Made by a program: the position numbers and the translations under genes
Source of the DNA: Candidatus Omnitrophota bacterium
Lineage (GTDB): Bacteria; Omnitrophota; Omnitrophia; Omnitrophales; Aquincolibacteriaceae
Reading direction: 5' to 3'
NCBI GenBank assembly: GCA_030698625.1
Contig: JAUYMS010000027.1
Coordinates: 39,781 to 103,780, forward strand
Length of the DNA stretch: 64,000 nt
Notes under the pieces: model-generated
Seen by the model: only the letters and a program-made list of their open reading frames with translations
What the model was told of the DNA's origin: nothing
Databases searched by the model: none
Part shown: positions 20,381 to 43,095 of the stretch, in pieces
How positions within the stretch are numbered: position 1 is the first letter of the stretch
How the letters are laid out: each line of letters opens with the position of its first letter

Positions 20381-21556
20381 TTACTTCTTGCCAGCCGGCG
20401 CAGCGCCCGTGACCCGCGCCGAAAGCTCCTTCGGATCTTGAGCAACTGCCATCATGATATCGTAGCTTATAATCCCCGCTTGATACAGCTCCCGCAAATG
20501 GTCATCTAGGGCTTTCATGCCGTATTTCAGACCGGTCTGAATCTCGGAGGTAATCTGGTAGGTCTTGTTTTCGCGTATGAGGTTCCTAATAGCCGGGGTT
20601 GCGATCATGATCTCGAAGCACCCCACCCGGCCCTTCCCATCCAGCCGGGGCAGCAGCACTTGTGAAATAACGGCAACGATGGTTGACGCCAGCTGAATGC
20701 GGACCTGCGTCTGCTGATGCGACGGAAACACGTCAATGATGCGATCCACCGTACGGGCAGCCCCGGTCGTGTGCAGGGTCGAGAACACCAGATGCCCTGT
20801 CTCAGCCGCTCCCACCGCCGCTTCCATGGTGGCCATATCGCGCATTTCACCGATGAGGATAACATCAGGATCCTGACGCAGAGCCTTAACAACGGCCTCC
20901 GCGAAACTCGGCACATCTTCACCGACTTCGCGCTGCGTGATAATCGCCTTTTTATGGTTGTGCACGAACTCAATCGGGTCTTCGGCGGTAATAATATGTT
21001 TTGCGGAATTCTCATTGATGTAGTTCAGCATCGTGGCCAAAGACGTTGTTTTGCCCGAACCAGTCGGACCGGTAACAAGTATCAGTCCGCGCGGTCGCGA
21101 CAACAGATCGATCATTTGCTTGGGTAGCCCGATTTGTTCGAAGGTATAAAAACGGGAAGGCAGCAGACGCAAGACCATGGCATAATTGCCTTGCTGCTTG
21201 AAACAGGAAACCCGGAACCGCACCCGATTCTCATAGGAAAAGCCGAAGTCGATACCGCCGACTTCTTCGACGCGCTTGCGCTGCTCCTCGGTCGTAATTT
21301 CACCTGCGAGCTTTTCGGTGTCTTCCGCCGTTAAAGGCGTGTCGTCAATCGAGACAAGGTCACCGTGAAGGCGCACGCTCTTCGGTCTGCCCACGGTCAA
21401 ATGGATGTCCGAAGCATCTTTCTCAATTGCAAAATTCAGAATCTTCTCGATCGCCATGGGCTCACCTTTCCGAAGTATAGCACGCCAAATGCCGCCCTCT
21501 TTCTTTACGGCTGCGGGGAAGTAAAAATTAAGGGAGGATTCCCTGAAGCCCGGCAA
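20381..21556 (-). CDS. pilT: Type IV pilus retraction ATPase PilT
   Basis: Walker A GPTGSGKTT, Asp box, His box and AIRNLIRE motif. Confidence 0.85.
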   Translation of the reverse strand: MPGFRESSLNFYFPAAVKKEGGIWRAILRKGEPMAIEKILNFAIEKDASDIHLTVGRPKSVRLHGDLVSIDDTPLTAEDTEKLAGEITTEEQRKRVEEVGGIDFGFSYENRVRFRVSCFKQQGNYAMVLRLLPSRFYTFEQIGLPKQMIDLLSRPRGLILVTGPTGSGKTTSLATMLNYINENSAKHIITAEDPIEFVHNHKKAIITQREVGEDVPSFAEAVVKALRQDPDVILIGEMRDMATMEAAVGAAETGHLVFSTLHTTGAARTVDRIIDVFPSHQQTQVRIQLASTIVAVISQVLLPRLDGKGRVGCFEIMIATPAIRNLIRENKTYQITSEIQTGLKYGMKALDDHLRELYQAGIISYDIMMAVAQDPKELSARVTGAAPAGKK

Positions 21557-22070
21557 GGATCAACGCGCAAAGAGAGGCCGTCAAAAATAAAATCGGCGCT
21601 CCCCGGACGGGTTGCGGCACGTCAGCAAACAGCAATCTCTGACGCATTCCGAGAATCAGGATTCGGTAGGTCGTAATGAGTACGCTGAATTGCAGACACA
21701 TTAAAAGATAAACGGCCGGCGCGGCCTTGGAGTGATAGAGAAGGAGATAGGTTGTAAAACCAAAAAGGCTCAAAAAAAATGCCGCTGACTTGTGCTGACC
21801 CATTCCTGAGATTACGAAAGCCGCAGGCAGGGCATATAAAACGGCGGGCGGTTCCCAACCGCCCCCAACAGGAATACGTCTTAGTAAAACATAGCAAGCA
21901 ACCAGCAACGCACTTTTAATCCCGAGCTCAATGCCTTGTCCGGCAAGGCTTTGCAGAGCACCCGGCAGAATGCCCCGCCTCTGAGAAAAATCATTTTCGG
22001 CACTCTCTTCGCTTTGGGCAAAACAGAGTAAGGTCCCAAAGGCGATAACCAGCTGCAGCCAATCGATCAT
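21528..22070 (-). CDS. RnfA/NqrE-like membrane subunit
   Basis: C-terminal RQRLLFADVPQPVRGAPILFLTASLCALILAGLQG aligns closely with RnfA/RsxA ([28 protein letters not shown]). Start set at internal ATG 22070, forming an ATGA overlap with the upstream gene. Confidence 0.65.
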   Translation of the reverse strand: MIDWLQLVIAFGTLLCFAQSEESAENDFSQRRGILPGALQSLAGQGIELGIKSALLVACYVLLRRIPVGGGWEPPAVLYALPAAFVISGMGQHKSAAFFLSLFGFTTYLLLYHSKAAPAVYLLMCLQFSVLITTYRILILGMRQRLLFADVPQPVRGAPILFLTASLCALILAGLQGILP

Positions 22071-22576
22071 GACGGTTTTAACCTCCCGAGAACAATTTGG
22101 CCCATCCAAGCAATACCGGCCAGAACGAGAAACCCCCCGATCGGCCCCTGGAACGTGGGAATAAGCGCTTGAACACCGAGCCAATGCCGGAAAGCTGCGG
22201 CGGTGATAACAACCGTCGGAAGACCGGCGCCTTGGAGCAAGCCGACCCTAACAGAATATTTTTCTTCCGCGTTACCGATGACTGTCGGCCACGTAAGAAA
22301 TGCCGGTCCTATAATCCAGAGCGGCGAAAAGTCAAAAAGATAAACCGTCGACTGACTTAACACCGTAAGCCACAGGATCCAGGCCGTTGACCGCAGGCGA
22401 TCCGGAAAAAGGAAGCCCCCAAGGCGAAATATGATCATCGTGCTCCAAATAACCGCCGCTGCCGCCAACGCGTAATAGACAGCCTCTCGCAGGTGGGACG
22501 AAACCAGTAACACTGGAACGGCCGCCAGCAACATGCGAAAGCTCGGGCAATCTTCGATCCTCACGCTCTTAGTCAC
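22067..22576 (-). CDS. RnfE/NqrD-like membrane subunit (GTG start)
   Basis: 169-aa polytopic membrane protein between the RnfD-like and RnfA-like genes, coupled to both by stop-start overlaps. Assignment rests mainly on position and hydropathy. Confidence 0.45.
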   Translation of the reverse strand: MTKSVRIEDCPSFRMLLAAVPVLLVSSHLREAVYYALAAAAVIWSTMIIFRLGGFLFPDRLRSTAWILWLTVLSQSTVYLFDFSPLWIIGPAFLTWPTVIGNAEEKYSVRVGLLQGAGLPTVVITAAAFRHWLGVQALIPTFQGPIGGFLVLAGIAWMGQIVLGRLKPS

Positions 22577-22710
22577 GTCGCCGAATCTCCGATACTATAA
22601 AGCCAGGCACTGTAAACCATGCAGGCAAGCCCCGCGACAAATGCGGCAAAGTATAAGTACTTCATCGCTTCAATCCACGGTTTTGACGGTCTCGTTTTTG
22701 CTTCTCTCAT
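22573..22710 (-). CDS. Small single-TM protein (45 aa) in the RnfG/NqrC position
   Basis: Translates to MREAKTRPSKPWIEAMKYLYFAAFVAGLACMVYSAWLYSIGDSAT. Its ATG overlaps the RnfD-like stop as ATGA, and its TGA overlaps the GTG start of the next gene as GTGA. Confidence 0.4.
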   Translation of the reverse strand: MREAKTRPSKPWIEAMKYLYFAAFVAGLACMVYSAWLYSIGDSAT

Positions 22711-23525
22711 AGAACCTTTGCATTTCTTGGTCGCACGATCTGATCGAACCAAGGCGTCAGTCCGTTCATAACCAGGACAGCCATAAAAATGCCGTCACTA
22801 TGTCGCATGACCTCGCCCAATAAAACCGCCATGACGGCGGTGCCCATCGCAAAAAAGCGCAAACCTCGCCGTGTCTGGGGTGTCGTCACAGGATCCGTGA
22901 TCAAAAAAAAGGCCGCGAACAGAGCACCTCCTCCGATATCCGTAGACAGAAGCGCATAGACGCCTAAAAAAATTACCGGAACTTCCCAGCGAATGAGCCT
23001 AAACCCGACAAGTATGCCCGCTCCCAGAAATAGGCCGACGGGTGACCCGAAACCGATGGCTCCCCCTTCGATGGCCAGCGGAAAACTCACCTGCATCAGC
23101 ACCCGGCCCGCAACAGCCGCATGAAGCGGATAAGCCCCCGGCCCTCCAAACATTTCCTTAATTAGAATAACCGCGATAGCGCTCGTCAGAGCTGCCGCCC
23201 AGGAGGGTGCGGAAGCCGGTAGCATTAAGGCTACTAGCAGTCCCGTTAATACGGCATCACCGCTCTTCAGGCTGATATTTTTGCCGCGGGCCGTCCGCGC
23301 CAGGACTTCCGAAACCAGGGATGCAGAAACAGCCACGCCGATGAGACGCAGGCTATTCCAGGCATTCGCCGCGACAGCTGCGCCTAGAACAGGCGTCAGG
23401 GCCAGGGCAGTAAGCCAGAGAATCGACGGCACGGAGCGCTCAGTTCGTATATGGGGTGCTAAACCCTGTTTATAAGAGGTCACCATAAGAAGCTCTAAAC
23501 TATCAGCAATAAATGAATTGTGCAA
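22707..23525 (-). CDS. RnfD/NqrB-like membrane subunit (short, 272 aa)
   Basis: FFLITDPVTTP matches the conserved RnfD/NqrB ...FF(M)xTDPVT motif. Polytopic and Gly-rich. Confidence 0.6.
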   Translation of the reverse strand: MHNSFIADSLELLMVTSYKQGLAPHIRTERSVPSILWLTALALTPVLGAAVAANAWNSLRLIGVAVSASLVSEVLARTARGKNISLKSGDAVLTGLLVALMLPASAPSWAAALTSAIAVILIKEMFGGPGAYPLHAAVAGRVLMQVSFPLAIEGGAIGFGSPVGLFLGAGILVGFRLIRWEVPVIFLGVYALLSTDIGGGALFAAFFLITDPVTTPQTRRGLRFFAMGTAVMAVLLGEVMRHSDGIFMAVLVMNGLTPWFDQIVRPRNAKVL

Positions 23526-23719: not shown

Positions 23720-24973
23720 ATGAAAATTAAATCGTCTTTAAACTGGGAACTGGGAATTGGCATACTGGAAGACAACGTATTTGGCCAATGCCCAAAACCT
23801 CAGGAATTGCCTTTCGCAGACCGGCGGCGGGAGCCGAGAATTTCCATGAGTCTCCCGATTCGCTACCGCTCCCAAGCACGCCCCGGCCCCAATTGGCTAG
23901 CTGCCCAGTCAATAGATATATCGCGCAACGGGGTTCGTCTGGCTCTGGAGCAACCCATAAAAGTGGGTAACCGCATTGAACTCGATGTGAAGCTGCCCGA
24001 GACCGACGGCACAATACGAATGGAGGGCATCATTGTCTGGGCCAATCCTTCCTCAAACGGCAAAGATATAACCGAGTGCGGGGTCGCCTTTCAGAATCTA
24101 CGCAAACTCACACAGAAGGAAAAAATAATCTATTTCATGGCGGACAAGATCTGCAGCCTTGCTCACCGCCATGCCACGGATCTCGTTGCCACACCCGCGA
24201 ATTCATTGGATGAGATCAAGGAAGCGTATGAGCTTGTGTACCGTGAATATCTTGCCCGCGGCTACTGTGAAGCCAACCCTTCCAAAATGCACTACAACGC
24301 GCATTGCATGTTTCCCGATTCCCGGGTATTCACTCTGCGTCGCGACGGCCGTCTCCTCGGAACACTGTCACTCATTCCGGATTCGCCCTGCGGCATACCT
24401 CTTGAACACCTCTTTCCCCAGGAGGTCGCACGATTAAGACGCCCGGGACGGCGGATTGCCGAGGTAAGCCTACTTGCTCTCAACGGTGAGTATTTTAAGA
24501 AAAAGACTTTTTCCCTTACAGATTTCCAGAAACTCACCGGATCATTTAGGCTCTTCAAGGTCATGTTCGATTACGCACGTTTTGAGGCGCGTGTGACGGA
24601 TATCGTCATCGGAATGCACCCAAAGCATGAGGAGCTGTATCGCTACCTGTCTTTCGAAACGATCGGTCCCACAAAATCCTATTCCAATGCCTGCGGCAAA
24701 CCGGCTCTCCCTATGTGGATGGACATTCCGCGCAACATAAGCACGGTTTCACTCAAACACGGTGCAGGCTATTACTTCCTCAAGGATGTCATCACGCAGG
24801 ATATCCTGGCCCGTCAATTCCGCTGGAACACCGAAGCCGTACGCGACCTTTTACTTCGACGTCCGCCGCTTTGGAATATGATGCCGATTGCCGGTTGGCA
24901 ATATCTTAAACACTGCTATCCGGGTCTCCATTCCACCAAGCCCCAAACCCCGACTCACGGCTCAAAAACGTAA
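23720..24973 (+). CDS. PilZ domain fused to N-acyl amino acid synthase-like (FeeM/OlsB-type GNAT) domain
   Basis: N-terminus has RxxxR (RREPR) followed by D-I-S-R-N-G (DxSxxG), the PilZ c-di-GMP-binding signature. The C-terminal ~270 aa resemble the FeeM/OlsB-type N-acyltransferase fold (YREYLARGY...FTLRRDGRLLGTLSLIPD...AEVSLLAL). Confidence 0.55.
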   Translation: MKIKSSLNWELGIGILEDNVFGQCPKPQELPFADRRREPRISMSLPIRYRSQARPGPNWLAAQSIDISRNGVRLALEQPIKVGNRIELDVKLPETDGTIRMEGIIVWANPSSNGKDITECGVAFQNLRKLTQKEKIIYFMADKICSLAHRHATDLVATPANSLDEIKEAYELVYREYLARGYCEANPSKMHYNAHCMFPDSRVFTLRRDGRLLGTLSLIPDSPCGIPLEHLFPQEVARLRRPGRRIAEVSLLALNGEYFKKKTFSLTDFQKLTGSFRLFKVMFDYARFEARVTDIVIGMHPKHEELYRYLSFETIGPTKSYSNACGKPALPMWMDIPRNISTVSLKHGAGYYFLKDVITQDILARQFRWNTEAVRDLLLRRPPLWNMMPIAGWQYLKHCYPGLHSTKPQTPTHGSKT

Positions 24974-24975
24974 TC

Positions 24976-26070
24976 ATGAAAAACGATATTCACGAAATCA
25001 TCCGGAAAGGGATACTCGCACCATCCGCAGATAATCTCCAACCGTGGCTTTTCAAAATCGGAGCGGACAACCTTGAGCTGTGGCTTGACGCAAAGCGCTC
25101 GGAAAATTTCTGCGACGCCGGGTATCTAGCCCCTTACATCTCGATCGGTGCCGTCATTGAGAATATGCGAATCGCCGCTGCCGATCGCGGCTATCGCATG
25201 ACTTGTTCCTATTTCCCGGATAAGAAAAATAAGACAAGGGTCGTCACAATCTCCTTCGAAAAGGGAGAAAAGGAGACATCCCCTCTTTTGCCGTTCATAG
25301 GCAAGCGACGCACAAACCGGAAGTTTTACGCTTCACGCCCGAGTGTCGCTCCCGCCGCAAAAGCATCGCTTGAGGAAACAGTATGCGAAGAAGGATTCCG
25401 ACTACACTGGGTAGCGAAAGATGAATCGCGCTACCAAGATCTGTGTAGTATGATCGGTGATGCCGATCAGTTGCGTTTTGAAAACCAAAGACTACACCGA
25501 GAATTTAACAATATATTGCGTTTTACTAAACCGGCGATAAGCGGTGGTGACGGCTTAGACATTAAGACCCTGGAGTCGGGTCCCACGGGGCCCCTTCTTT
25601 TTAAGTTGATGGGCCAGTGGTCCCGGCAAAAGTTTCTGAATAATCTCGGTATTAGCCGGGTCTTCAATGCGTACGCAAAGATCCAGATGCAGTCATCGGC
25701 AGCTGCGGGCCTGATCACGGCCCCCTCTCATGCCCCTGAGGATTATGTTCGCGGGGGGGAGCTCATGGAGCGCCTCTGGCTTGAGGCCACCCGGCAGGGG
25801 CTTTCCCTGCAACCGATGGAAGCACTACCCATTTTTATCATTAACCGGCAACTGCGCAATTTAAGCGATTTTTCAGAAGCTCAAAAGGCGACCATCGAAC
25901 GGCTGACGGCAAATTTCTTTTCGCTCTTCGGTATTAACAATAAGGACGGGCTCATTTTTCTATTCCGCATTGGTCACGCCAAGCCCACCACCACACAGGC
26001 CCTCAGACGCCCGATCGATTCCTTTCTGATGAACAGCGCCGATACAGGAGTTAAATATGTCGTCTCCTGA
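24976..26070 (+). CDS. Two-half-domain nitroreductase-family FMN protein
   Basis: The N-terminal half has the nitroreductase signature APSADNLQPWLF; the second half has RRTNRKF (RRxxRxF). 364 aa; starts 3 bp after the upstream stop. Confidence 0.6.
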   Translation: MKNDIHEIIRKGILAPSADNLQPWLFKIGADNLELWLDAKRSENFCDAGYLAPYISIGAVIENMRIAAADRGYRMTCSYFPDKKNKTRVVTISFEKGEKETSPLLPFIGKRRTNRKFYASRPSVAPAAKASLEETVCEEGFRLHWVAKDESRYQDLCSMIGDADQLRFENQRLHREFNNILRFTKPAISGGDGLDIKTLESGPTGPLLFKLMGQWSRQKFLNNLGISRVFNAYAKIQMQSSAAAGLITAPSHAPEDYVRGGELMERLWLEATRQGLSLQPMEALPIFIINRQLRNLSDFSEAQKATIERLTANFFSLFGINNKDGLIFLFRIGHAKPTTTQALRRPIDSFLMNSADTGVKYVVS

Positions 26071-27010
26071 GTTTGATTACTCCCAAGCTTTCGACCGCAA
26101 CATCGGTTGGCTCACGAAACACGAGCAAGAAAAACTGCGCGGCATCTGCGTCGCTATCGCAGGCCTCGGCGGCGCCGGTGGGTTTCAAGCGCAGGCCCTG
26201 GCCCGTCTCGGCGTCGGGAAATACCGGATTGCCGATCCGGACACTTTTGAAATATCCAACCGAAATCGCCAGATCGGCGCCACGGAGTCAACAGTGGGCC
26301 ACCCCAAGGCCACAACGATTCGTGACATGATTCTTGCCATCAACCCAACCGCCTCAGTAGAAATTTATCCGGAGTGTTTCAGCACGGCCAATGCCGGCGC
26401 AATCCTGGAAAGCGCTGATGTGGCCATAGATGGCATCGACTTCTTCTCTATCGACGATAAAATTCTATTTTTTCAGGAATGCCGAAAACGCGGTATCCCA
26501 GCCATCACCTCTTGCCCTTTGGGCTTCGGCGCATCTCTGATGGTCTTTTCTCCGCAGGGCATGACGTTTGAGGATTACTTTAATTTCCGGCCGGACATGA
26601 GTGAGAAGGATAAGAGAAACAGTTTCGCCTTCGGGCTTTCTCCTTCGCCCCTTTGTTTGAGCTATATGAATCCTGACGCCTTCGGGTCCGACAACAAGCG
26701 CGCCGCGAGCGTTGTTCCGGGACTCATGCTGGTGGGCGCGCTAACAGCGACAGAAGTGGTAAAGCTCGTTACGCATATGGCCCGGCCGAATTCCTGCCCA
26801 CATGTCTATCAGATTGATTTAATGACGCAGCGCGTCAGCAAGAAATATTATCGCTGGGGAATGAGAGGCCCTTGGATGCGCTGTAAGAAAGCGCTGGCCC
26901 TCAAATGGGTGGAGTACAAGCGCCGTAGGCATGCGTCAAATCCAAGCCTTGCGGCTTCGCCGCCGGATGAACATAAGCAAACGGGGAGTGCTCGCCATGC
27001 GGTTTCTTAA
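26057..27010 (+). CDS. ThiF/MoeB-family E1-like adenylyltransferase (non-canonical, no C-terminal CxxC)
   Basis: Rossmann motif IAGLGGAGGF and E1-like ...ADPDTFEISNRNRQ. 14-bp overlap with the upstream nitroreductase gene. Confidence 0.7.
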   Translation: MSSPEFDYSQAFDRNIGWLTKHEQEKLRGICVAIAGLGGAGGFQAQALARLGVGKYRIADPDTFEISNRNRQIGATESTVGHPKATTIRDMILAINPTASVEIYPECFSTANAGAILESADVAIDGIDFFSIDDKILFFQECRKRGIPAITSCPLGFGASLMVFSPQGMTFEDYFNFRPDMSEKDKRNSFAFGLSPSPLCLSYMNPDAFGSDNKRAASVVPGLMLVGALTATEVVKLVTHMARPNSCPHVYQIDLMTQRVSKKYYRWGMRGPWMRCKKALALKWVEYKRRRHASNPSLAASPPDEHKQTGSARHAVS

Positions 27011-27764
27011 ACCAGTCTTGATGGCCTGGGCCGTCGTGTTGAGCCTGATTCCCACACTCAAAGCAGAAACCACGCCGCCGGGCGCTACGGAACTCCTACG
27101 CCGAATGGACCAGGTCCTCCGAGGTGATTCTCACGACATGACCGTAACGCTTGATGTTATAACAGCCCGCTGGGAACGCCATTACAAAATCCGGGTTCGC
27201 ATGCAAGGAATCGACTATGCGTTCGCGCGAGTCTTGGAACCTTCAAAAACCGAGGGACAAGGTTTCTTGAGAATCAAGGCACGTCTCTGGCAATATTTAC
27301 CGACGGCGGAACGCACTATTCTCATACCTCCTTCCTTGATGCTTGATGATTTCATGGGCAGCGATTTTTCCAATGATGACTTCGTAAAGCTTAGCTACTT
27401 GCCGCGGGACTACGACGCTAAGATTGTTGCCGAAGATACAATCAGTGGTTTTGAAGTGCTCGGACTGGAGCTTATTCCTCGCCCTGATGCCCCTGTCACA
27501 TACGGCAAACTTGAAGTTTGGCTGCGAAAGACCGATGCGGCACCCGTACGCTGGCTCTTTTATAATGAAAAAATGCTCTTGATAAGAACTCTGCATTACT
27601 CTGAATTTAAACAATTCGGAACCCACGATATCCCAACCGTATGGCGCATGGAGAATCATCTCGAAGCCGGTCACGAGACCACCGTTACCGTGCTGTCGGC
27701 GGCCTTCGACACTCCGATCGCCCAATCCCAATTCACACGAGAAAACCTAGAAAAGTATCCCTGA
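26997..27764 (+). CDS. LolA-like periplasmic lipoprotein-sorting/lipid-carrier family protein
   Basis: Start at ATG 26997 gives signal peptide MRFLKPVLMAWAVVLSLIPTLKAE. Size and composition fit LolA-like proteins of the kind often found next to FtsX-type ABC transporters. Overlaps the ThiF gene by 14 bp. Confidence 0.5.
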   Translation: MRFLKPVLMAWAVVLSLIPTLKAETTPPGATELLRRMDQVLRGDSHDMTVTLDVITARWERHYKIRVRMQGIDYAFARVLEPSKTEGQGFLRIKARLWQYLPTAERTILIPPSLMLDDFMGSDFSNDDFVKLSYLPRDYDAKIVAEDTISGFEVLGLELIPRPDAPVTYGKLEVWLRKTDAAPVRWLFYNEKMLLIRTLHYSEFKQFGTHDIPTVWRMENHLEAGHETTVTVLSAAFDTPIAQSQFTRENLEKYP

Positions 27765-28987
27765 TGTTTCTCTTCAAGCTCGCGTTTCTTAATATCACCC
27801 GGAATGTTCGCAGGTCCCTAATCACTGTGATGGCTGTCGGCGTCGGTCTCGCCGCGCTTATCTTCCTGTGGGGATTTAATGACGGCACAATCGAGCAGAT
27901 GCGCGAGAACGTCATACGCCTTTTTACGGGCCATGTGCAGATTCATGCTCGCGGCTTCGAAAAATCGCTCTCCCCTGAGCTCTTTCTTGCACAGAGAGAA
28001 AAGGTTCTCATCGATGTTGCGGCAAACCCGGCCGTCTCACGAATCACCGAACGCGTCAAATGCGAAGCGCTTGTCGGCACGAGTGAGAACTCGCGCGGAG
28101 TTCTTTTGGTCGGAGTAGACCCCGAACGTGAAAGACAGATTACCGATCTCGAGGACCACATTGAGGCGGGACGCTATTTGGAGCCGGACGGAAATCGCGA
28201 GATACTAGTCGGAGACCGACTGGCCAAAAAAATAGGCCTCGATCTGGATGACAAAGTCGTCGTGATGACGCAGGCGATGGACGGGACTTTGGCCGGTTAT
28301 GCCTATCGCGTCAAAGGCATCTTTCACACAGGGAGCCAGCAGATTGACGAGGTTTCGGTTTATATCACGCTGGCATCCGCCCAGGAATTACTCGGGCTTG
28401 GGGAAGATGTTCATGAGATTGTGATCCAGCTTTCAGACCGCAAGGGAATAGAACCGTTTCTTGAGTGGGCGAAGATCAGCCTCGGTAGCGAAAAATACGA
28501 GGTTTTGAAGTGGAATGAGCTTATCCCCGAAGTTGATCAATGGACGCAGTGGGCCGAAGCAGTCATTGGAACTATTTTGATCGCCGTCATGGTCGTTATC
28601 GGGGTCAGCATTATGAACACGGTGCTCATGTCCATATATGAAAGGACCCGCGAACTCGGCGTCATGATGGCCATCGGCACAAGCCCCTCCCAGATCGTAC
28701 AACTCATACTGCTTGAGACGCTAATTCTGGAAGGTCTCGGTATTATTCTGGGTTTAGTGGGCGGGTACCTCGTTACAATTTATTTCGGAGAAGTCGGAAT
28801 CTCATTCCACGGCGTCGAAGAGGCCTTTTCGCGTTCTTATATGAGCACGGTTGTCTTCACTAAAGTGGAATGGCCACATGTGGTTCAGTCTGTTATTACG
28901 CTAATTCTCTTAACATCATTCATCGGACTCTATCCGGCCTGGAAGGCATCCCGCATGGAGCCGGTTAAAGCCATCTATTATTCTTAA
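27764..28987 (+). CDS. ABC transporter permease, FtsX/MacB/LolCE type
   Basis: N-terminal TM (ITRNVRRSLITVMAVGVGLAALIF), a ~230-aa periplasmic domain, then three C-terminal TMs (FtsX fold). Its ATG overlaps the LolA-like TGA as TGATG. Confidence 0.75.
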   Translation: MFLFKLAFLNITRNVRRSLITVMAVGVGLAALIFLWGFNDGTIEQMRENVIRLFTGHVQIHARGFEKSLSPELFLAQREKVLIDVAANPAVSRITERVKCEALVGTSENSRGVLLVGVDPERERQITDLEDHIEAGRYLEPDGNREILVGDRLAKKIGLDLDDKVVVMTQAMDGTLAGYAYRVKGIFHTGSQQIDEVSVYITLASAQELLGLGEDVHEIVIQLSDRKGIEPFLEWAKISLGSEKYEVLKWNELIPEVDQWTQWAEAVIGTILIAVMVVIGVSIMNTVLMSIYERTRELGVMMAIGTSPSQIVQLILLETLILEGLGIILGLVGGYLVTIYFGEVGISFHGVEEAFSRSYMSTVVFTKVEWPHVVQSVITLILLTSFIGLYPAWKASRMEPVKAIYYS

Positions 28988-28992
28988 ATATC

Positions 28993-29685
28993 ATGTTCAT
29001 AAAAGCCGAAAATATATCGAAGGTGTTTCAGGACCGCTCGCTCCCAGTCACTGCCCTCAAAGCAGTGAGCGTCGATATTGAGGAGGGGTCCTTTACGGTG
29101 CTCTGCGGGCCGTCGGGTTCCGGCAAGACAACACTCCTAAATCTGCTGGGTTGCCTTGATCGCCCTTCCGGAGGCCGAGTCTTTCTCAGAGGAGAAGAAA
29201 TCAGCGCCCTGTCTCAGGAAAAGCTCACGCGCTACCGGCTGCGGAAAATTGGCTTTGTTTTTCCTGATTTTAATCTCATTCCGACTCTGAGCGCCGTAGA
29301 AAATGTAGAGTATGTCCTTTGGCTTCAGGGCATCTCCGGAACAGAACGCCGCAAGCGCGCCGCCGCCATTTGCGAACGCTTTGGCATCGGCGCTCTAATT
29401 CACCGCCGCCCCCGTGAACTCAGCCGCGGACAACAGCAGCGTGTTGCGGTGGCCCGTGCCATCGTTCACAAACCAGAATTGGTTCTTGGCGATGAATTGA
29501 CCTCGAACCTAGATCATAAGACCGGGTCGGAGCTCATGGGTTTCTTAAAAGAATTAAATCGGGAAGAAAAAATGACTTTTATTTATGCCACCCATGACCC
29601 CGTCATGATCGAACGCGCCGGACGCGTGATTCGAATGCAGGACGGCGAAGTCGTCAGCGATGAAAAGACACGCGTTCATGCTTAG
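28993..29685 (+). CDS. ABC transporter ATP-binding protein (LolD/MacB-NBD-like)
   Basis: Walker A GPSGSGKTT, signature LSRGQQQRVAVARA, Walker B LVLGDELTSNLD. Confidence 0.85.
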   Translation: MFIKAENISKVFQDRSLPVTALKAVSVDIEEGSFTVLCGPSGSGKTTLLNLLGCLDRPSGGRVFLRGEEISALSQEKLTRYRLRKIGFVFPDFNLIPTLSAVENVEYVLWLQGISGTERRKRAAAICERFGIGALIHRRPRELSRGQQQRVAVARAIVHKPELVLGDELTSNLDHKTGSELMGFLKELNREEKMTFIYATHDPVMIERAGRVIRMQDGEVVSDEKTRVHA

Positions 29686-30910
29686 GAAGTTCCTAGCCGG
29701 GTATCTAGCCGCAGCATTACTATTGCCGGTTTGCGCGTTTGCCGAGGAAACGACCCAACCGCCGCTGGAAGTCAAACGGCCCTCTTTGAAAATTCAATTT
29801 TCCGGTTACGCCAAGAGCCAGAGTTTCTTTACGCAAACCAGCGGATTCTCTCCTGAGTTTGTCGACAACCCCGCACTCCTCGAACAGGACGAGAACAGCT
29901 TCAATGCTCTGCAGCGATTAAGACTAAAAATTAAAGCGTTGTATAAAATCTCCGATGAGACACGCGTGAGCGCTAACATCCATTATGACCACCAGGCCAA
30001 TTTCGGCACTTTCATTTCAACCGGAGACGCGCGTATCTCGAGAAAACAGGCGGAGGACCGTCAATTTCTTGACTTGAGTCAGACATTGATCGAGAACGAC
30101 GACACTGACTACCAGCATCGGTTGTACCGAGCCAGCGTTTTGCTTGAAACGCGTTATGCCGACGTAGAGATCGGCCGCCAGCAAATCCCTTGGGGAGTCG
30201 GTCACTTCTTCACGCCGACGGATGTCTTTAATTCCTTCAACCCCACACAAATCGAGCTCGAAGAGCGTGACGGCGTGGATGCCCTGCGCCTTAGATCACC
30301 GGCCATTCGAGGCGTTCAGGGCGAGTTTATTTATACGCCTCAGGGACGCCAGCTTCACCCGAGCCGTTTCATGGGCCGCCTATCGGGCGATTTTCGTGGT
30401 TATGAGATCGGAATTCTTGGCGGGCATATCAAGCGAGATAATGCAGTCGGTTTTGACTTCGCCGGTAATATCGGAGATTCATCGGTGCGCGGGGAACTTC
30501 TTTTCAGAAACGCCGACACTGAAAAGGATTATTTGAAATTTACGGTAAACGCTGACTACAATTTCCCTTTCAATCTCTACGGCCTTATCGAATACCACTT
30601 CAACGGCCAGGGACGTCGCGATACAGCTTCTTATCAACTTGATCGGCTCGTCCGCGGGGATATTCGTGAATTGGGCCGCAATTACGGAGCCGTCATGCTC
30701 GGGTATGATGTCACAGCACTGATTCGTTTGGAGAATAGGCTCATCATGAATTTAGATGACGCGAGCCTTTTTCTAAGACCGGAGGTCCAGTACGAGCTCA
30801 GTTCGGATTTGTTGTTTACCCTCGCGAGTCAGTTATTCCTGGGCTCCAACACCGACGAGTACGGAAGGCCGAAGAATCTCTTCTTCGGAGAGTTGACCTA
30901 CTCCTTCTAA
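29660..30910 (+). CDS. Outer-membrane beta-barrel protein (unknown family)
   Basis: Signal peptide ...AALLLPVCAFAEE, alternating beta-strand pattern rich in Y/F/G, C-terminal GELTYSF ending in Phe. Overlaps the ABC ATPase gene by 26 bp. Confidence 0.5.
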   Translation: MKRHAFMLRKFLAGYLAAALLLPVCAFAEETTQPPLEVKRPSLKIQFSGYAKSQSFFTQTSGFSPEFVDNPALLEQDENSFNALQRLRLKIKALYKISDETRVSANIHYDHQANFGTFISTGDARISRKQAEDRQFLDLSQTLIENDDTDYQHRLYRASVLLETRYADVEIGRQQIPWGVGHFFTPTDVFNSFNPTQIELEERDGVDALRLRSPAIRGVQGEFIYTPQGRQLHPSRFMGRLSGDFRGYEIGILGGHIKRDNAVGFDFAGNIGDSSVRGELLFRNADTEKDYLKFTVNADYNFPFNLYGLIEYHFNGQGRRDTASYQLDRLVRGDIRELGRNYGAVMLGYDVTALIRLENRLIMNLDDASLFLRPEVQYELSSDLLFTLASQLFLGSNTDEYGRPKNLFFGELTYSF

Positions 30911-32248
30911 AGCATATCGAATGAGATCTGCCATCGGGCGTTTTGCCGGGCATACATAACTACAGTTTCCGCAACCGATACAAGCTGAAATTCCCCAATC
31001 GGAAGCCATTTCAAAAAGGTCCGCCTCTGCCGCTTGTGTGATCATAACCGGCGATATCTCCACCGGGCAGGCACTGACGCAATCCCCGCAATGAATGCAG
31101 GCATGCACTTCTTCCGGCTTTGTCACTTCATGAGGCAGCGCAAGAATGGCCTCGGTTTGCGCTATGACGCAGGCATCCCAGTCTCGCTGAGCAATGCCTT
31201 TCATTGGGCCGCCCATGAGAATCTTCTCCGGCCCCCGCATCAGCCCACGGCAACTCTTCACGGCATCCTGAAAAGAAATACCAAAGGGCAACCAAATGTT
31301 ACGGGGTTCAATGATGCATTCTCCGGCCACCGTAACCACCCTTTCATATAAGGGTTTGTGGTACCGTACAGCTTCATAGACCGAAAACAGAGTGGCCGTA
31401 TCTTCAATCGCTATGCCCGCTTGATGAGCGAGCTCAAGATAACCGTCTCGCGCGCTCTCGGCGAATCTCAGTTGCATGAGCGCGCCGGCATTCCGAATTA
31501 AATCGATTCCAAGTACGTCGCGAATGAGCGGGAGGGTTTCCGACTGCGGATACCTTTCGGATAATAACGTGACTTTGAAGTGCTTCCACTTGAGGAAGAA
31601 GATCTTGCTCCGCAGGAGTTCCGCGATTTCGGACTTGCTCGCATCAAGAGCAATCACGACCCGCTCCGCCCCTATGAGGCTTCGCATGCTTTCGGCGCCG
31701 CGGAGGATCTCGACAGGATGCGACATCAGGAGTGCGTGGGCCGAAGTAACGTAGGGGTCGGTTTCGCATCCGTTGACAATCAGTGTCCGGAGTTCGCCTT
31801 GCGAAATGGGCTCGTACTTTGCATGCAGCGGATTTCCTGCTTCCATGCTCATCAAACCGCTCTCGCGAAAGATCGCAAATAAATTACTGCGGCTCAGGAG
31901 CTCCCAACCTTCCCTTTCCGAATTGACCTCCGGTGACCACCCGAAGGTTTCATCACCGCTAATCTCGACGGCAAGACCCGTGCCCCCCTTTGAATCGGGA
32001 AATCGATCAATCCGAGTGACCTCCCCGGGCATGCTGGCGTGGGACGGAACAGCATCGGCATCGACGGGCATCGCGACCACTTGGCCGGCTATCACAACAG
32101 TGCCCACTTCGACACAGACTTCCTGCCGGTAAGGCTCGCGCTCCCGGATGAGAATACGCACTTTCGCAGGACGGGTCCTGCTGCGCTTGATAGCCCAAGA
32201 GACCAAGCTTGACTCTTTCTTCGACTCAAGCGCGAGCCCGCCGATCAT
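30833..32248 (-). CDS. RnfC-like electron-transfer protein with two [4Fe-4S] motifs (paralog with a degenerate NADH site)
   Basis: IVNGCETDPYVT (compare RnfC INAAECEPYIT), MGGPMKG (compare RnfC GGPLMG), and CIHCGDCVSACP plus CIGCGNCSYVCP ferredoxin motifs. The GGAGFPT NADH motif is not conserved. Confidence 0.6.
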   Translation of the reverse strand: MIGGLALESKKESSLVSWAIKRSRTRPAKVRILIREREPYRQEVCVEVGTVVIAGQVVAMPVDADAVPSHASMPGEVTRIDRFPDSKGGTGLAVEISGDETFGWSPEVNSEREGWELLSRSNLFAIFRESGLMSMEAGNPLHAKYEPISQGELRTLIVNGCETDPYVTSAHALLMSHPVEILRGAESMRSLIGAERVVIALDASKSEIAELLRSKIFFLKWKHFKVTLLSERYPQSETLPLIRDVLGIDLIRNAGALMQLRFAESARDGYLELAHQAGIAIEDTATLFSVYEAVRYHKPLYERVVTVAGECIIEPRNIWLPFGISFQDAVKSCRGLMRGPEKILMGGPMKGIAQRDWDACVIAQTEAILALPHEVTKPEEVHACIHCGDCVSACPVEISPVMITQAAEADLFEMASDWGISACIGCGNCSYVCPAKRPMADLIRYALEGVGQLSEEEILRPSVLVGVGAQE

Positions 32249-34160: not shown

Positions 34161-34943
34161 TTAAACCGGCAGGCTTGGAACGGAATAAATCTGGTCAACT
34201 TGTATCCGTTCTTGAAAAATTTCCTTCAACCGTCCATACCTGCATGTATCCACGTCGAGGTCATCCATTTCAGGCAGGGATCCGAGAACAGGTACACCGG
34301 AGAGCTCGTGAATGACTTTTGGGTTGGTGATTTCAGCCAATGAGACATTCGTTTTGGCCATACGATTGAAAATTACACCGCGCACTTCAAAACCGCGGAT
34401 CACTGCAGCATCGATTGTCAAAAGCGTGTGGTTGATCGCTCCGAGCCCCCCTTTTGAAACAATGAGAAGGGGAAGCTGAAATTCACGGACTAAGTTCGCG
34501 ACAAAATAGTCTTTGGAAAACGGCACGAGTAAGCCGCCGATCCCTTCCACAATGATAAAATCGTAGTTTTTCTGCAATTCTCCGAACGATCTTCGAATCT
34601 GCGGCAGGTCGACCTCGCGCTTCTCCAAAACCGCGGCAACGCTTGGGGCGAGGGCGTGACGGTATCGCACAGGACTGGTTAAAGGCGGGTACTCATTCTC
34701 GGCCGCCTCTAAGAGATAGGCGCTATCATGACAGATCAGACGTTTGCCAAATTCCATACAGCCCGTTCCTACGGGCTTCATGACACCCACCTTCATCCCC
34801 CGGGATTTCAATGCCATGGCCAAACCGGCAGCCACGACGGTTTTTCCGACTCCTGTATCGGTTCCAGTAATAAAAATTCCCGGCTTATACGCAGGCATAC
34901 GCCCCGCCTTTCTCTTTAACCGTCGCCTCGATAATCGACGCAT
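34161..34943 (-). CDS. bioD: Dethiobiotin synthetase
   Basis: P-loop GTDTGVGKT and conserved BioD core. Confidence 0.85.
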   Translation of the reverse strand: MRRLSRRRLKRKAGRMPAYKPGIFITGTDTGVGKTVVAAGLAMALKSRGMKVGVMKPVGTGCMEFGKRLICHDSAYLLEAAENEYPPLTSPVRYRHALAPSVAAVLEKREVDLPQIRRSFGELQKNYDFIIVEGIGGLLVPFSKDYFVANLVREFQLPLLIVSKGGLGAINHTLLTIDAAVIRGFEVRGVIFNRMAKTNVSLAEITNPKVIHELSGVPVLGSLPEMDDLDVDTCRYGRLKEIFQERIQVDQIYSVPSLPV

Positions 34944-36273
34944 AGGTTATGTCCAACAAATCGCCTAACTCATCTATCGTCATTGCAAGCGGGGGCATTA
35001 ACACCACAACTGCGCCCAACGGCCGAATAATTGCCCCCTTTTCACGGGCTTTGAGAATCACCTGATGGCCGATCTGCTCTTCAGCAGCAAACGGGGCCTT
35101 TGCCGCCTTGTTGCGAACGAGTTCAATCCCCACCATAAATCCTGCCTGCCGCACATCCCCCACCGTCTCAAGCACGGAGAAATTTTTGAGTCTTTCGGTC
35201 AGAAATCGAATCTTCGGTTGCAATGCCTCAAGAACGCGGTTCTTTTCAAACAGTGCCAGATTCGCTAGTGCCACACGGCAAGCAAGCGGATTGGCTGTGT
35301 ATGTATGGCCGTGAAAGAACGTCTTGTACTCCCCATACTCGCCCAGGAAAGCCTCGTACACCGCTTCGGTGGCAAGAGTTGCTGCCAGAGGCATATAGCC
35401 CCCGGTAATCCCCTTGGCAAGCGCCATCAAGTCAGGGGTAATACCTTCGTGTTCACTCGCAAACATCGCACCCGTTCGTCCAAAACCCGTGGCGACTTCG
35501 TCAAAAATCAAAAGCACATTGTATTTGCGCGCCAAGTCTCGGGCTCCTGAGAGATATCCGGCGGGCTGATCAATCATACCTCCGGCCCCCTGAATAACAG
35601 GTTCCATGATGAGGGCGGCAATCTCTTCGTGATGGGCGCCGAGCACCTCTTCCATCTTCACAAGCGCTTCTCTGCGTACCTGCTCCGGATCATCGCCGGT
35701 CGGCCAGCGGTAGCGGTAAGGTGTCGGCACCGTATAGGTTTTAAATAATAACGGATGAAAAATCTCGTGAAAGAGATCAATGCCGCCGACACTCACTGAT
35801 CCTAGAGTATCTCCGTGATAAGCCAACGACAACTTAGCAAATTTAGTTTTTGAAGGTTTCCCTTTATGCCGCCAATACTGGAGCGCCATCTTGACGGCCA
35901 CTTCCACTGCGGCAGAGCCGGAATCGGAATAGAAGACGCGAGAGAGTCCGGGAGGAGCTATCGAAATAAGTTTTTCGGCCAGCTCGATCGCCGGAACATT
36001 TGAAAGCCCGAGGAAAGTGGAGTGAGCAACCTGCCCAAGCTGATCCACTATGGCTTGATCCAGCTCCGGCACTTGATGTCCGTGCACGTTACACCAAAGC
36101 GAAGAGACGCCGTCGAGGTACTTCCGACCCCGCACATCTTCAAGATAAACACCGCGAGCCCGCTCAATGACGAGCATCTCATCACGGGCCCAGTCTCTCA
36201 TTTGTGTAAACGGATGCCAAAGGTAGCGCTTATCTTTCGCCTGTAAGGATTCGAATCTCGACTGTGCTTGCAT
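34885..36273 (-). CDS. bioA: Adenosylmethionine-8-amino-7-oxononanoate aminotransferase
   Basis: Class III aminotransferase with PLP-Lys region (FDEVATGFGRTG); located in the bio cluster. Confidence 0.85.
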   Translation of the reverse strand: MQAQSRFESLQAKDKRYLWHPFTQMRDWARDEMLVIERARGVYLEDVRGRKYLDGVSSLWCNVHGHQVPELDQAIVDQLGQVAHSTFLGLSNVPAIELAEKLISIAPPGLSRVFYSDSGSAAVEVAVKMALQYWRHKGKPSKTKFAKLSLAYHGDTLGSVSVGGIDLFHEIFHPLLFKTYTVPTPYRYRWPTGDDPEQVRREALVKMEEVLGAHHEEIAALIMEPVIQGAGGMIDQPAGYLSGARDLARKYNVLLIFDEVATGFGRTGAMFASEHEGITPDLMALAKGITGGYMPLAATLATEAVYEAFLGEYGEYKTFFHGHTYTANPLACRVALANLALFEKNRVLEALQPKIRFLTERLKNFSVLETVGDVRQAGFMVGIELVRNKAAKAPFAAEEQIGHQVILKAREKGAIIRPLGAVVVLMPPLAMTIDELGDLLDITYASIIEATVKEKGGAYACV

Positions 36274-36293: not shown

Positions 36294-37070
36294 TTAAAAA
36301 CTAACGACAACTTGATTATCATCTTCCCCGATGAGACAACGGAGACGGTTCTTGCCTTCGCGCTTTGCCTGATAAAGCGCCAGGTCTGCTCTCACGAGAA
36401 ATTCCGTCATGGTCTCTCCGAGACGGTAGCTGGTCAGGCCCGCGCTAAAAGTCGTATCGAGCCATTCTTGGACATTGATTTGAATTCGCGCCAAAAATTT
36501 TTCGGAGTTCACCAGATTTGTATGCGGGAGTAGAATGCAAAATTCGTCACCCCCATAGCGCCCCAGGGAATCGCTGGAACGGATTGCTTTTAGAATATGC
36601 TGAGAAAACTTCTTTAACAGTTCGTCTCCGCGAGGATGCCCGTAAGTGTCATTGAATGATTTAAAGTTATCGAGATCAATTAAACAAATGCTAAGAGGAA
36701 ATTTATACCGCCCTGCCCGCCGCATTTCCTCATCCAGAGTCTCTTCGAATGCAGAGCGATTAAAAGCCTGCGTCAATCCATCGTACATAGACTGAATTTC
36801 CAAACGCCGCCACCGGCCTTTCAATCGATTGAAGACAATCTGCTGTGCAACTTGAAAGACGGCGAAAGCCACAAGCAAGCTGAGCAAAACGTAAGGCACC
36901 CAATCTTGGCGTATAAGGGGTTTGCCGGCCGGAAGCAGAAGGTAGAGCAATCCCGCGAGGGCCGCAAAGGTGAACACAGCCGAGCATTTCTGAATAAAGC
37001 TCTGAGAGTCAAAAAGCCCGGCTATTTCTGCGGTAGCTCGGGTTGCTCGCCTTGGCTGCGTTTTTGTCAT
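36294..37070 (-). CDS. Membrane-anchored GGDEF diguanylate cyclase
   Basis: Two N-terminal TM helices, then a GGDEF domain with GRYGGDEF active site and DxLT-type motif (YDGLTQAFNR). Confidence 0.8.
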   Translation of the reverse strand: MTKTQPRRATRATAEIAGLFDSQSFIQKCSAVFTFAALAGLLYLLLPAGKPLIRQDWVPYVLLSLLVAFAVFQVAQQIVFNRLKGRWRRLEIQSMYDGLTQAFNRSAFEETLDEEMRRAGRYKFPLSICLIDLDNFKSFNDTYGHPRGDELLKKFSQHILKAIRSSDSLGRYGGDEFCILLPHTNLVNSEKFLARIQINVQEWLDTTFSAGLTSYRLGETMTEFLVRADLALYQAKREGKNRLRCLIGEDDNQVVVSF

Positions 37071-41273: not shown

Positions 41274-41525
41274 TTAGCCTTCGACGATATCTCCCAGAAC
41301 GGATTCTACTTTAACACCTTTTGCCTTCATTTCCTTCTCCGCCTGTTCGATATGTTCCTCGTTACCCTCGAGTTCGATCGTTGCTTCCCCGGCCTCCGCG
41401 GTAATCTTGGCCCGGCGGACATTCAACACTAGGTTCAGATCGCGGGCGATCAGAAACATAATCGGCTCCTTGATAAGATTCTGAGGAAAGTAAAGTTGAA
41501 AAGCTCTTTTAGCCACTGTGATCAC
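41274..41525 (-). CDS. NIL-domain-like small protein
   Basis: 83 aa. Resembles the MetN C-terminal NIL domain found as a standalone module in sulfur-metabolism contexts; 4-bp overlap with the ThiS-like gene. Confidence 0.4.
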   Translation of the reverse strand: MITVAKRAFQLYFPQNLIKEPIMFLIARDLNLVLNVRRAKITAEAGEATIELEGNEEHIEQAEKEMKAKGVKVESVLGDIVEG

Positions 41526-41797
41526 CCTCCGGCGATGGCCGGGATTATGGAAACCTGATCGCCGTCTTTGACCGCGGTCTCTTCCTGGCTTAAGAAACGG
41601 ATGTCTTCCTCGTTGAGGTAGACGTTTACGAAGCGGCGAACCTTACCTGTTTCATCGCACAGGCGATCTTTCATTCCCGGAAAACTCTTCTCGAGTTCTA
41701 CGATGAGCTCCTTGATATTGCCCGCGATGACCTCAACTTCATCCTTGTTCGATGTTAATTTCTGAAGCGGTGTTGGAATTCTAACCTTAACCGGCAT
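41522..41797 (-). CDS. ThiS/MoaD/CysO-family sulfur-carrier protein
   Basis: 91 aa, beta-grasp-sized, ends in ...IPAIAGG (C-terminal Gly-Gly). Confidence 0.65.
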   Translation of the reverse strand: MPVKVRIPTPLQKLTSNKDEVEVIAGNIKELIVELEKSFPGMKDRLCDETGKVRRFVNVYLNEEDIRFLSQEETAVKDGDQVSIIPAIAGG

Positions 41798-43084: not shown

Positions 43085-43095
43085 AATTTTCCGGC

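Follow-up and report, generated by a model that had tools for sequence, protein, structure and literature searches.

RESULTS

A compact operon surrounds the flavoprotein and ThiF genes

The subject of this analysis is a pair of overlapping genes at positions 24976 to 27010 of a 64,000-nucleotide stretch of DNA from a Candidatus Omnitrophota bacterium (contig JAUYMS010000027.1), a stretch that we refer to as the window. The pair encodes a flavoprotein of the nitroreductase superfamily (24976 to 26070, 364 residues) and a ThiF-like protein (26057 to 27010, 317 residues). A preliminary description had singled them out as overlapping nitroreductase-family and ThiF-type E1 genes, and both open reading frames (ORFs) were indeed found on the + strand with an overlap of 14 nt. 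The two genes had been delimited correctly, but they are only genes 2 and 3 of a compact operon of seven + strand genes (23720 to 30910), the last four of which, described below as putative export genes, had gone unnoticed. The operon comprises the following genes.

[quoted passage not shown]
24976 to 26070, + strand: nitroreductase-superfamily flavin-dependent oxidase (FDO), 364 residues (NCBIfam Rv1355c and Acg families)
26057 to 27010, + strand: ThiF-like putative adenylating cyclodehydratase, like TyzB and the N-terminal domain of OxzB, 317 residues (Pfam ThiF, NF006077)
26997 to 27764, + strand: LolA-like (TP_0789-like) putative periplasmic carrier, 255 residues from the ATG at 26997 (Pfam LolA_like PF17131)
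27764 to 28987, + strand: MacB/LolCE-type (type VII) ATP-binding cassette (ABC) permease with MacB_PCD and FtsX, 407 residues from the ATG at 27764 (Pfam)
28993 to 29685, + strand: ABC transporter ATPase, LolD/DevA/MacB-like, 230 residues (Pfam ABC_tran)
29660 to 30910, + strand: probable outer membrane beta-barrel, maybe a distant DUF1302 relative, 416 residues (signal peptide, C-terminal ...LTYSF)

The genes are tightly packed, with junctions of between -26 and +5 nt, and 2 nt separate the end of the synthase gene from the FDO gene. An Rfam scan of the 194-bp spacer upstream of the operon gave no match to a regulatory RNA such as a cyclic di-GMP (c-di-GMP) riboswitch, and scans for promoters and terminators returned no more sites than shuffled sequence did. 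No further paralogue of ThiF or of FDO is encoded in the window. The operon is wedged between opposite-strand genes of the Rnf type, rnfC (21528 to 23525, - strand) and rnfD(-E/A-like) (30833 to 32248, - strand). The same wedging between rnf genes was seen in two relatives (L001 and L005; ThiF identity, 56 to 58%) and may be functional or merely old synteny.

The first gene encodes an acyltransferase with a PilZ domain

The synthase combines a PilZ domain (approximately residues 34 to 137, 23819 to 24130; Pfam E value, 5.8e-16) with a FeeM-type acyltransferase domain (approximately residues 168 to 335, 24221 to 24724; Pfam E value, 8.6e-35), and the protein also matched the FeeM structure 2G0B (E value, 1.5e-11). 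In the alignment, the Glu that has been proposed as catalytic in FeeM (PMC4897644) has Glu248 of the synthase as its counterpart, and this Glu is conserved. By sequence, an N-acyl amino acid acyltransferase would therefore appear to be encoded directly beside the ThiF and FDO genes, as it is in the acyl-oxazolone systems to which we compare the operon in the Discussion.

The PilZ domain carries both motifs that mark c-di-GMP receptors, RxxxR at R36 to R40 and DxSxxG at residues 66 to 71 (D66-I-S-R-N-G71), and both are conserved in orthologues, as far as the Planctomycetales protein. The automatic gene call starts the synthase at 23846, 42 codons late, with loss of the RxxxR motif; we take the ATG at 23720 as the true start because the N terminus that it adds is conserved in orthologues. 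With both motifs in place, the synthase step is probably responsive to c-di-GMP via the N-terminal PilZ domain. A fusion of NAS and PilZ in the opposite domain order is known from metagenomic N-acyltyrosine synthases (PMC4897644). The window also encodes a GGDEF diguanylate cyclase (36294 to 37070, - strand), approximately 5.4 kb from the cassette, which is a possible source of c-di-GMP for the PilZ domain; it is surrounded by biotin-synthesis-like genes, including a bioB-like gene (40226 to 41251), two aminotransferase genes (34885 to 36273 and 37067 to 38326), and a dethiobiotin-synthetase-like gene (34161 to 34943).

The flavoprotein belongs with the FDO family rather than with SagB

The match of the flavoprotein to the Pfam nitroreductase family PF00881 was weak (E value, 9.3e-10), and far better matches were obtained with NCBIfam models: the C-terminal domain of the Rv1355c (TrzS) family NF005901 (E value, 3.4e-69; model positions 376 to 718 of 722), the PRK14851 family of ThiF-FDO fusions (E value, 6.6e-66), and the Acg family of flavin mononucleotide (FMN) oxidoreductases (E value, 3.1e-48). 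The NCBIfam scan, taken to an E value of 0.01, gave only FDO, Rv1355c, and Acg families, and no SagB model matched. The label SagB-like, which had been attached to this protein, can thus be replaced: judged by its profile matches, the flavoprotein is a member of the FDO (Acg/Rv1355c/TyzC) subgroup.

The structural evidence is consistent with this assignment. An AlphaFold2 model built with 22 homologues (predicted local distance difference test [pLDDT] score, 91.6) superposes over its full length on 2YMV, a monomeric, internally duplicated nitroreductase of the Acg type that was the best fold match in a search of the PDB (template modeling scores, 0.69/0.77), which bears out the two half-domains that had been read from the sequence. 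The motifs quoted for these halves, APSADNLQPWLF and RRTNRKF, were located at residues 15 to 26 (25018 to 25053) and 111 to 117 (25306 to 25326), respectively. The model also shows a helical insertion of approximately 90 residues at roughly 151 to 239. Across 22 homologues, down to 26% identity, S17, N20, R111, R115, W268, P280, R331, and R344 are invariant, and the FMN-type motifs are likewise invariant among the homologues. In other words, the match to NF005901, the identity to the FDO part of OxzB (see below), and the superposition on 2YMV all agree with what distinguishes this oxidase subgroup, namely, a monomeric, duplicated fold with a lid insertion. By analogy with characterized members, FDO is predicted to be a C-alpha/C-beta desaturase for N-acyl amino acids.

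These data bear directly on a reading in which the pair belongs to a pathway for thiazole/oxazole-modified microcins (TOMMs) or other ribosomally synthesized and posttranslationally modified peptides, with the E1-like protein as a docking protein and a SagB-type dehydrogenase acting on a peptide encoded elsewhere. Apart from the superficial pairing of domains, nothing speaks for it. The profile matches of the flavoprotein are to FDO families instead of SagB, no YcaO family match was found among the window ORFs of at least 300 residues, and the 194-bp upstream spacer holds no Cys/Ser/Thr-rich small ORF that could encode a precursor peptide; nor is there space for such a gene inside the operon, because the junctions are so short. 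We regard this explanation as scarcely credible and have rejected it. The preliminary description had itself noted the lack of YcaO and precursor genes and leaned toward a small-molecule, non-TOMM role; this does seem the likelier reading, but the description missed both the substrate-supplying NAS gene 2 nt upstream and the published oxazolone chemistry.

The ThiF-like protein retains adenylation residues but lacks the features of sulfur-transfer E1 enzymes

The ThiF-like protein matched Pfam PF00899 (E value, 5.7e-43) and, above the cutoff, the stand-alone ThiF-like family NF006077 (PRK08223; 302.6 bits with a cutoff of 266; profile positions 3 to 291 of 296). A protein with 100% identity to it is annotated in a metagenome-assembled genome of Candidatus Omnitrophota. 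Its AlphaFold2 model (pLDDT, 85.5) has the E1/ThiF fold, as found by a search of the PDB, and the nearest ThiF-like sequence there is AclA (9EGB/9EGC), on which a literature search found nothing. The Rossmann motif IAGLGGAGGF is present as described, at residues 34 to 43 (26156 to 26185). Seventeen homologues, to 40% identity, share an invariant G36-to-G42 loop, D60, N70-R71-Q72, K84, D125, and D128, and none of the Cys residues is invariant among them. The protein thus appears to keep the residues for adenylation and is homologous to the ThiF part of OxzB, as would be expected of the cyclase of an acyl-oxazolone system. Since the ThiF part of the Rv1355c (TrzS) model was matched only weakly (54 bits; positions 90 to 225), the sequence suggests that it belongs to the TyzB/OxzB subcluster rather than to the TrzS subcluster.

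An alternative role for the ThiF-like protein, raised in the preliminary description, is that of an E1 enzyme for the MoaD/ThiS-like protein encoded at 41522 to 41797 (- strand), in a protein-thiocarboxylate sulfur transfer for Cys, Met, or a cofactor with which the flavoprotein has nothing to do. This small protein does exist, is MoaD/SAMP-like, and ends in Gly-Gly, it lies beside ThrC-like, CysK, and sulfate activation genes, and the window holds no other ThiF-family ORF. However, the genes for the two proteins are 14.5 kb apart on opposite strands, and the scores of the ThiF-like protein with the curated models for ThiF, MoeB, MoeZ, and SAMP-E1 are only 57 to 87 bits where the cutoffs are 152 to 647 (ThiF, 87 versus 275; MoeB, 84 versus 266 to 449; MoeZ, 57 versus 647). 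With seven Cys residues, the protein has no CxxC, in line with the reported lack of the C-terminal zinc motif of MoeB/ThiF, and it has no rhodanese domain and no invariant Cys. Furthermore, dozens of genomes have its orthologues fused with, or next to, FDO and NAS, and the contig measures 178,844 bases, so that a cognate E1 for the Gly-Gly protein can sit outside the window. We consider a partnership of the two proteins very improbable.

The Gly-Gly protein lies in a - strand cluster (41274 to 45431) that further encodes a NIL-domain protein, a ThrC-like pyridoxal phosphate enzyme with an N-terminal zinc-ribbon-like match, CysK, phosphoadenylyl sulfate reductase, and adenylyl sulfate kinase. 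The cluster looks like one for protein-thiocarboxylate-dependent synthesis of sulfur amino acids; no E1 partner dedicated to it was found in the window.

Synthase, oxidase, and ThiF genes travel together and are fused in other genomes

When species-representative genomes were scanned, 80 loci were obtained, the carriers including Omnitrophota, Planctomycetales, Nitrosospira, Thiobacillus, Accumulibacter, Burkholderiales, Methylococcales, Geobacterales/Desulfuromonadales, Nitrospirota, and Elusimicrobia, among others. Cultured strains with a ThiF homologue include Malonomonas rubra DSM 5091 (with LolA-like, FDO, and NAS genes close by), Pelotalea chapellei DSM 13688 (with FDO and NAS), and Geobacter hydrogenophilus DSM 13691 (with FDO). 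Co-occurrence was counted with iterated profiles within 9 kb of the ThiF gene in the 48 loci that had at least 5 kb on both flanks. A FeeM-type synthase was present in 41 of these 48 loci and FDO in 42, with both together in 37. The whole seven-gene cassette, including the barrel-like protein as its last gene, was also found in Omnitrophota relatives (ThiF identity, 56 to 60%), and a Planctomycetales locus is among the closest relatives of the window.

The three enzymes also occur in fused form. ThiF-FDO fusions were seen in 7 of the 80 loci, and a 989-residue fusion of NAS, ThiF, and FDO is encoded on the megaplasmid pDV1 of Desulfovibrio vulgaris Hildenborough (DVU_RS16045; L089, 8062 to 11031). 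Residues 28 to 245, 314 to 601, and 616 to 986 of this protein align with the NAS, ThiF, and FDO of the window at 30%, 35%, and 26% identity, respectively, and its gene lies within an XrtA/PEP-CTERM exosortase polysaccharide locus that also encodes PEP-CTERM proteins and has a PilZ gene. A tblastn search of plasmids returned records from Nitratidesulfovibrio and Bdellovibrio only. Likewise, the NCBIfam family PRK14852 (989 residues) aligns with the synthase (profile positions 28 to 238), ThiF (313 to 593), and FDO (616 to 795) of the window, and PRK14851 and Rv1355c align with its ThiF and then its FDO; because these models align colinearly, the three window genes exist elsewhere as single fused proteins. 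The scores were below the cutoffs (NF005901 [Rv1355c], 234 versus 476; NF011424 [PRK14851], 223 and 220 versus 1170; NF011425 [PRK14852], 171, 108, and 76 versus 1337), as expected because each window protein covers just one domain of the fused models. An apparent NAS-FDO fusion in another locus (L007, 7230 to 8912) was discarded as an artifact of a masked run of N.

The downstream genes resemble the Lol and type VII ABC systems

The gene for the LolA-like protein overlaps the end of the ThiF gene by 14 nt and is itself overlapped by the permease gene by 1 nt. The protein matched LolA_like PF17131 (E value, 3.6e-45) and has a Sec signal peptide without a lipobox. The permease matched Pfam FtsX (E value, 2.1e-19) and MacB_PCD (E value, 1.1e-15), and the ATPase matched ABC_tran (E value, 3.5e-29). 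The 416-residue product of the last gene has a weak pairwise similarity (E value, 1e-4) to a protein encoded at the same position in the uncultured Planctomycetales locus L003, which itself matches DUF1302 (E value, 9.4e-14). Together, the proteins encoded by these four genes probably remove the hydrophobic product of the pathway from the inner membrane and shuttle it through the periplasm, its destination being the outer membrane or the cell surface.

The link between this module and the three enzymes is observed in other lineages too. A LolA-like gene overlaps or abuts ThiF in Omnitrophota, Planctomycetales, Desulfuromonadales (including the cultured Malonomonas rubra), and one beta-proteobacterium. 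In uncultured Planctomycetales, FDO and an ABC ATPase are fused in one 585-residue protein (L003, 3106 to 4860; in the same place, L013, 4085 to 5860), the gene for which is flanked by two genes for FtsX permeases. The L003 locus also has a 162-residue gene of no known function between PilZ-NAS and ThiF, and two extra stand-alone PilZ genes downstream.

Could the four genes be an ordinary Lol system for lipoprotein sorting, or a general efflux system, that shares the operon without transporting a lipid made by it? The best NCBIfam matches are indeed LolCE, LolD, and LolA-like, and no other Lol system was seen in the 64-kb window. However, the scores are far below the cutoffs (lolCE, 145 bits versus 362; LolD, 205 versus 307.75), and the module accompanies ThiF, FDO, and NAS in Omnitrophota, Planctomycetales, Desulfuromonadales, and beta- and gamma-proteobacteria, groups with Lol systems of their own. 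Moreover, the FDO-ATPase fusion links the two halves of the cassette, and the cassette carries a probable outer membrane barrel of its own, a component that the Lol pathway does not use. We therefore judge this explanation improbable.

DISCUSSION

The combination of genes that we describe has close counterparts among systems that make acyl-oxazolones. In Pseudoalteromonas rubra, the "oxazolone synthetase" OxzB, a ThiF-nitroreductase di-domain protein, turns the N-acyl Tyr or Phe made by the adjacent acyltransferase OxzA into tyrazolones or phenazolones in an ATP-dependent reaction, and the oxzAB pair of Skermanella aerolata is one of those from five species that yielded oxazolones in Escherichia coli (bioRxiv 10.1101/2020.06.11.147165). 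In Mycobacterium tuberculosis, the same tasks are divided over separate proteins: acylation is the task of TyzA, O2-dependent desaturation that of the FDO TyzC, and ATP-dependent cyclization that of the ThiF homologue TyzB (PMC10404671). TrzA/TrzS (Rv1356c/Rv1355c) carry out the same chemistry on tryptophan with a fused TrzS (PMC12856293). Finally, clusters of NasY, ThiF, and nitroreductase genes are behind the N-acyl dehydrotyrosines (stieleriacines and thalassotalic and kyonggic acids) of Planctomycetota and further phyla (PMC12479983).

The S. aerolata OxzB homologue, a 712-residue ThiF-nitroreductase protein (P0311), was recovered by a search seeded with the fused homologue of a related locus. 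The ThiF of the window aligns with its residues 12 to 314 (38% identity; E value, 1e-64) and the FDO with residues 312 to 677 (27% identity; E value, 1e-23), each over its full length. An acyltransferase gene lies directly upstream of P0311, as it does upstream of the pair in the window. The systems differ in that OxzB is one fused protein, ThiF followed by FDO, whereas the window has two genes in the order FDO and ThiF, and in that oxzAB is a two-gene operon with no dedicated exporter, whereas the window has four export genes. In the comparison with TrzA/TrzS, the FDO of the window matches the whole FDO part of the Rv1355c model, but again TrzS is fused where the window genes are split.

The window genes are organized like those for TyzACB (Rv2336, Rv2337c, and Rv2338c; PMC10404671). 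Both systems consist of three separate proteins, a FeeM-fold acyltransferase, a monomeric FDO that has approximately 360 to 370 residues and a lid insertion, and a homologue of ThiF with approximately 318 residues; the FDO gene adjoins the ThiF gene (the order in the window being A-C-B), and a lipid transporter gene is nearby, mmpL9 in M. tuberculosis. The synthase of the window is also nearer in family to TyzA and NasY than to the S. aerolata OxzA, because TyzA and NasY are FeeM-like. In contrast, the M. tuberculosis tyzA is divergently transcribed, whereas all window genes are codirectional and overlapping; the synthase of the window has an additional N-terminal PilZ domain; its transporter combines a LolA-like protein, a type VII ABC transporter, and a probable outer membrane barrel instead of an MmpL protein; and the host is a diderm Omnitrophota bacterium, not an actinobacterium. 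An FDO match in M. marinum (P0231) was considered as a TyzC orthologue and rejected; its gene adjoins a polyketide synthase gene at a contig end. The NasY clusters (PMC12479983) have the same trio of genes, with ORFs that overlap or nearly abut, and Planctomycetota carriers; their products are open-chain dehydro acids that are often methylated, whereas the window operon has no methyltransferase gene.

The two genes at 24976 to 27010 had been presented as an unexplained combination, but they correspond to a published oxazolone synthetase, fused in OxzB (bioRxiv 10.1101/2020.06.11.147165) and TrzS (PMC12856293) and split in TyzC plus TyzB (PMC10404671). Judged from these homologies, the pair is most likely a split form of that enzyme and in itself ordinary; the puzzle of an orphan E1 with a flavoprotein is resolved because the chemistry of the two genes has already been published. 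What looks new is the presence of a PilZ domain on the pathway and of a Lol-like export module that recurs across phyla.

For that module, precedents are found in LolCDE-LolA, MacAB-TolC, DevBCA, and YbbAP-TesA, which share with it the MacB core and FtsX permease, the LolD-like ATPase, and the LolA-fold periplasmic protein; YbbAP is a type VII ABC precedent that pulls hydrophobic small molecules from the inner membrane (PMC12646458, PMC10094684). Compared with the Lol and other type VII systems, the window module is tied genetically to a small-molecule lipid pathway, has its own probable outer membrane barrel, and stays under the cutoffs of the curated Lol models. Unlike MacAB and DevBCA, it comes without a gene for a MacA- or DevB-type adaptor.

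We propose, with a probability of roughly 0.7, that the genes at 23720 to 27010 encode a three-enzyme pathway to an N-acyl-dehydroamino-acid or acyl-oxazolone lipid that is organized like tyzACB. The proposal builds on what was observed here: homologous sequences, the arrangement of domains, catalytic motifs and synteny that are conserved, and gene fusions. In a first step, the FeeM-type synthase would N-acylate an amino acid, by precedent an aromatic one (Tyr, Phe, or Trp), from acyl-acyl carrier protein or acyl-coenzyme A. FDO (24976 to 26070) would then introduce the C-alpha/C-beta double bond, and the ThiF-like enzyme would adenylate the free carboxylate with ATP, after which attack by the amide oxygen would close the 5(4H)-oxazolone ring. 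c-di-GMP, bound by the PilZ domain, would gate the synthase step, and the type VII ABC transporter, the LolA-like carrier, and the outer membrane barrel would bring the lipid to the outer membrane or surface. We infer what each enzyme does, which amino acid and acyl chain are used, which of the FDO and ThiF steps comes first, and the c-di-GMP control and export; the enzymology seems to us likely, and we are less confident of the control by c-di-GMP and of the export.

Several observations weigh against this proposal. At 38% for ThiF and 27% for FDO, the identity to OxzB from a species with a validated system is moderate, the synthase has no detectable similarity to the S. aerolata OxzA (Acetyltransf_5), and TyzB and TyzC were likened to the window proteins by description, not by sequence identity. 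As to export, the 416-residue protein has no Pfam match above the threshold (DUF1302, 14.6 bits versus a gathering threshold of 23.2; E value, 0.016). A LolA-like or FtsX-type gene is present within 9 kb of ThiF in 39 of the 48 loci, a count that was made without a random-locus control and with an FtsX profile that is generic; such counts are suggestive, and the case for export as part of the system is made more firmly by the FDO-ATPase fusion and the genes that abut. With respect to the product, bacteria with NasY, ThiF, and nitroreductase gave open N-acyl dehydrotyrosines and no oxazolones (PMC12479983), so by analogy the product released by the window system may not be the ring. Finally, TyzC is O2 dependent, yet many of the carriers are anaerobes (Geobacter, Desulfuromonas, and Desulfovibrio).

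In the organism studied here, O2 use by FDO is plausible because the window encodes heme O and heme A synthases and cytochromes. The heme O synthase (UbiA family) and heme A synthase (COX15/CtaA) genes lie at 49665 to 51451 (- strand), and the region from 56214 to 63992 (- strand) encodes a 938-residue multiheme cytochrome c that carries a cbb3-type domain, together with a cytochrome b in split form and a protein for cytochrome c assembly. These genes hint at aerobic or microaerobic respiration.

The open-chain products of the NasY clusters lead to a different view of the last step. Conceivably, synthesis and desaturation proceed as above, but the activated acyl donor is the ThiF adenylate or an oxazolone that exists only transiently. 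This donor would either be hydrolyzed, giving an N-acyl-dehydroamino acid (stieleriacines and thalassotalic acids being examples), or be transferred to a nucleophile, which may sit on a lipid, a polysaccharide, or a sorted surface protein, and the Lol-like module would handle the final conjugate. Oxazolones are reactive azlactones (bioRxiv 10.1101/2020.06.11.147165), and the role of ThiF in clusters that give N-acyl dehydrotyrosines without an observed oxazolone has been called enigmatic (PMC12479983). The position of the D. vulgaris triple fusion within an XrtA/PEP-CTERM exosortase polysaccharide locus and the PEP-CTERM-domain gene that neighbors the S. aerolata oxzAB would also fit such a transfer. 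On the other hand, the oxazolone itself was the product detected in reconstituted OxzAB, TyzACB, and TrzAS and was found in native cells too (PMC10404671, PMC12856293), and genes for a transferase, an exosortase, or PEP-CTERM proteins are absent from the window operon. We consider a role as an activated donor unlikely, and the pathway to an acyl-oxazolone or dehydroamino acid lipid remains our preferred reading.

Two further observations concern genes elsewhere in the window. A 799-residue membrane protein (6680 to 9079, - strand) matched the TLC ATP/ADP transporter family (E value, 1.6e-12) and also MFS_1; an ATP/ADP translocase-like protein would be in keeping with Omnitrophota living in dependence on a host. 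A 555-residue ORF without a Pfam family (3606 to 5273, - strand) adjoins the gene for an Omp85-superfamily protein (5227 to 6531, - strand).

Possibly, the cassette as a whole is self-contained and, gated by c-di-GMP, both makes a surface lipid and puts it in place. In this tentative extension of the preferred reading, to which we give clearly less than even odds, the PilZ domain would turn on the synthase, FDO and ThiF would make a reactive acyl-oxazolone from its product where the type VII ABC transporter faces the cytoplasm, and the LolA-like carrier and the barrel would deliver it, as a small-molecule counterpart of the Lol pathway that is tied to the biofilm or exosortase matrix. If true, this would answer what acyl-oxazolones are for and where they are sent, their role and cellular destination having been stated as unknown in the papers on OxzAB, TyzACB, and TrzAS (bioRxiv 10.1101/2020.06.11.147165; PMC10404671; PMC12856293).

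In summary, the pathway now has a wider range, with Omnitrophota and many anaerobes among its carriers, and one may ask which electron acceptor serves the oxidase in place of O2. The only previous hint of transport of acyl-oxazolones was the neighboring mmpL9 in M. tuberculosis, whereas an export module is now linked to the pathway in several phyla and, in one lineage, by gene fusion. In addition, the pathway carries a PilZ domain in Omnitrophota and Planctomycetales and lies within an exosortase polysaccharide locus in Desulfovibrio. The hypothesis that results is that acyl-oxazolone lipids may be exported components of the envelope or matrix under the control of c-di-GMP.

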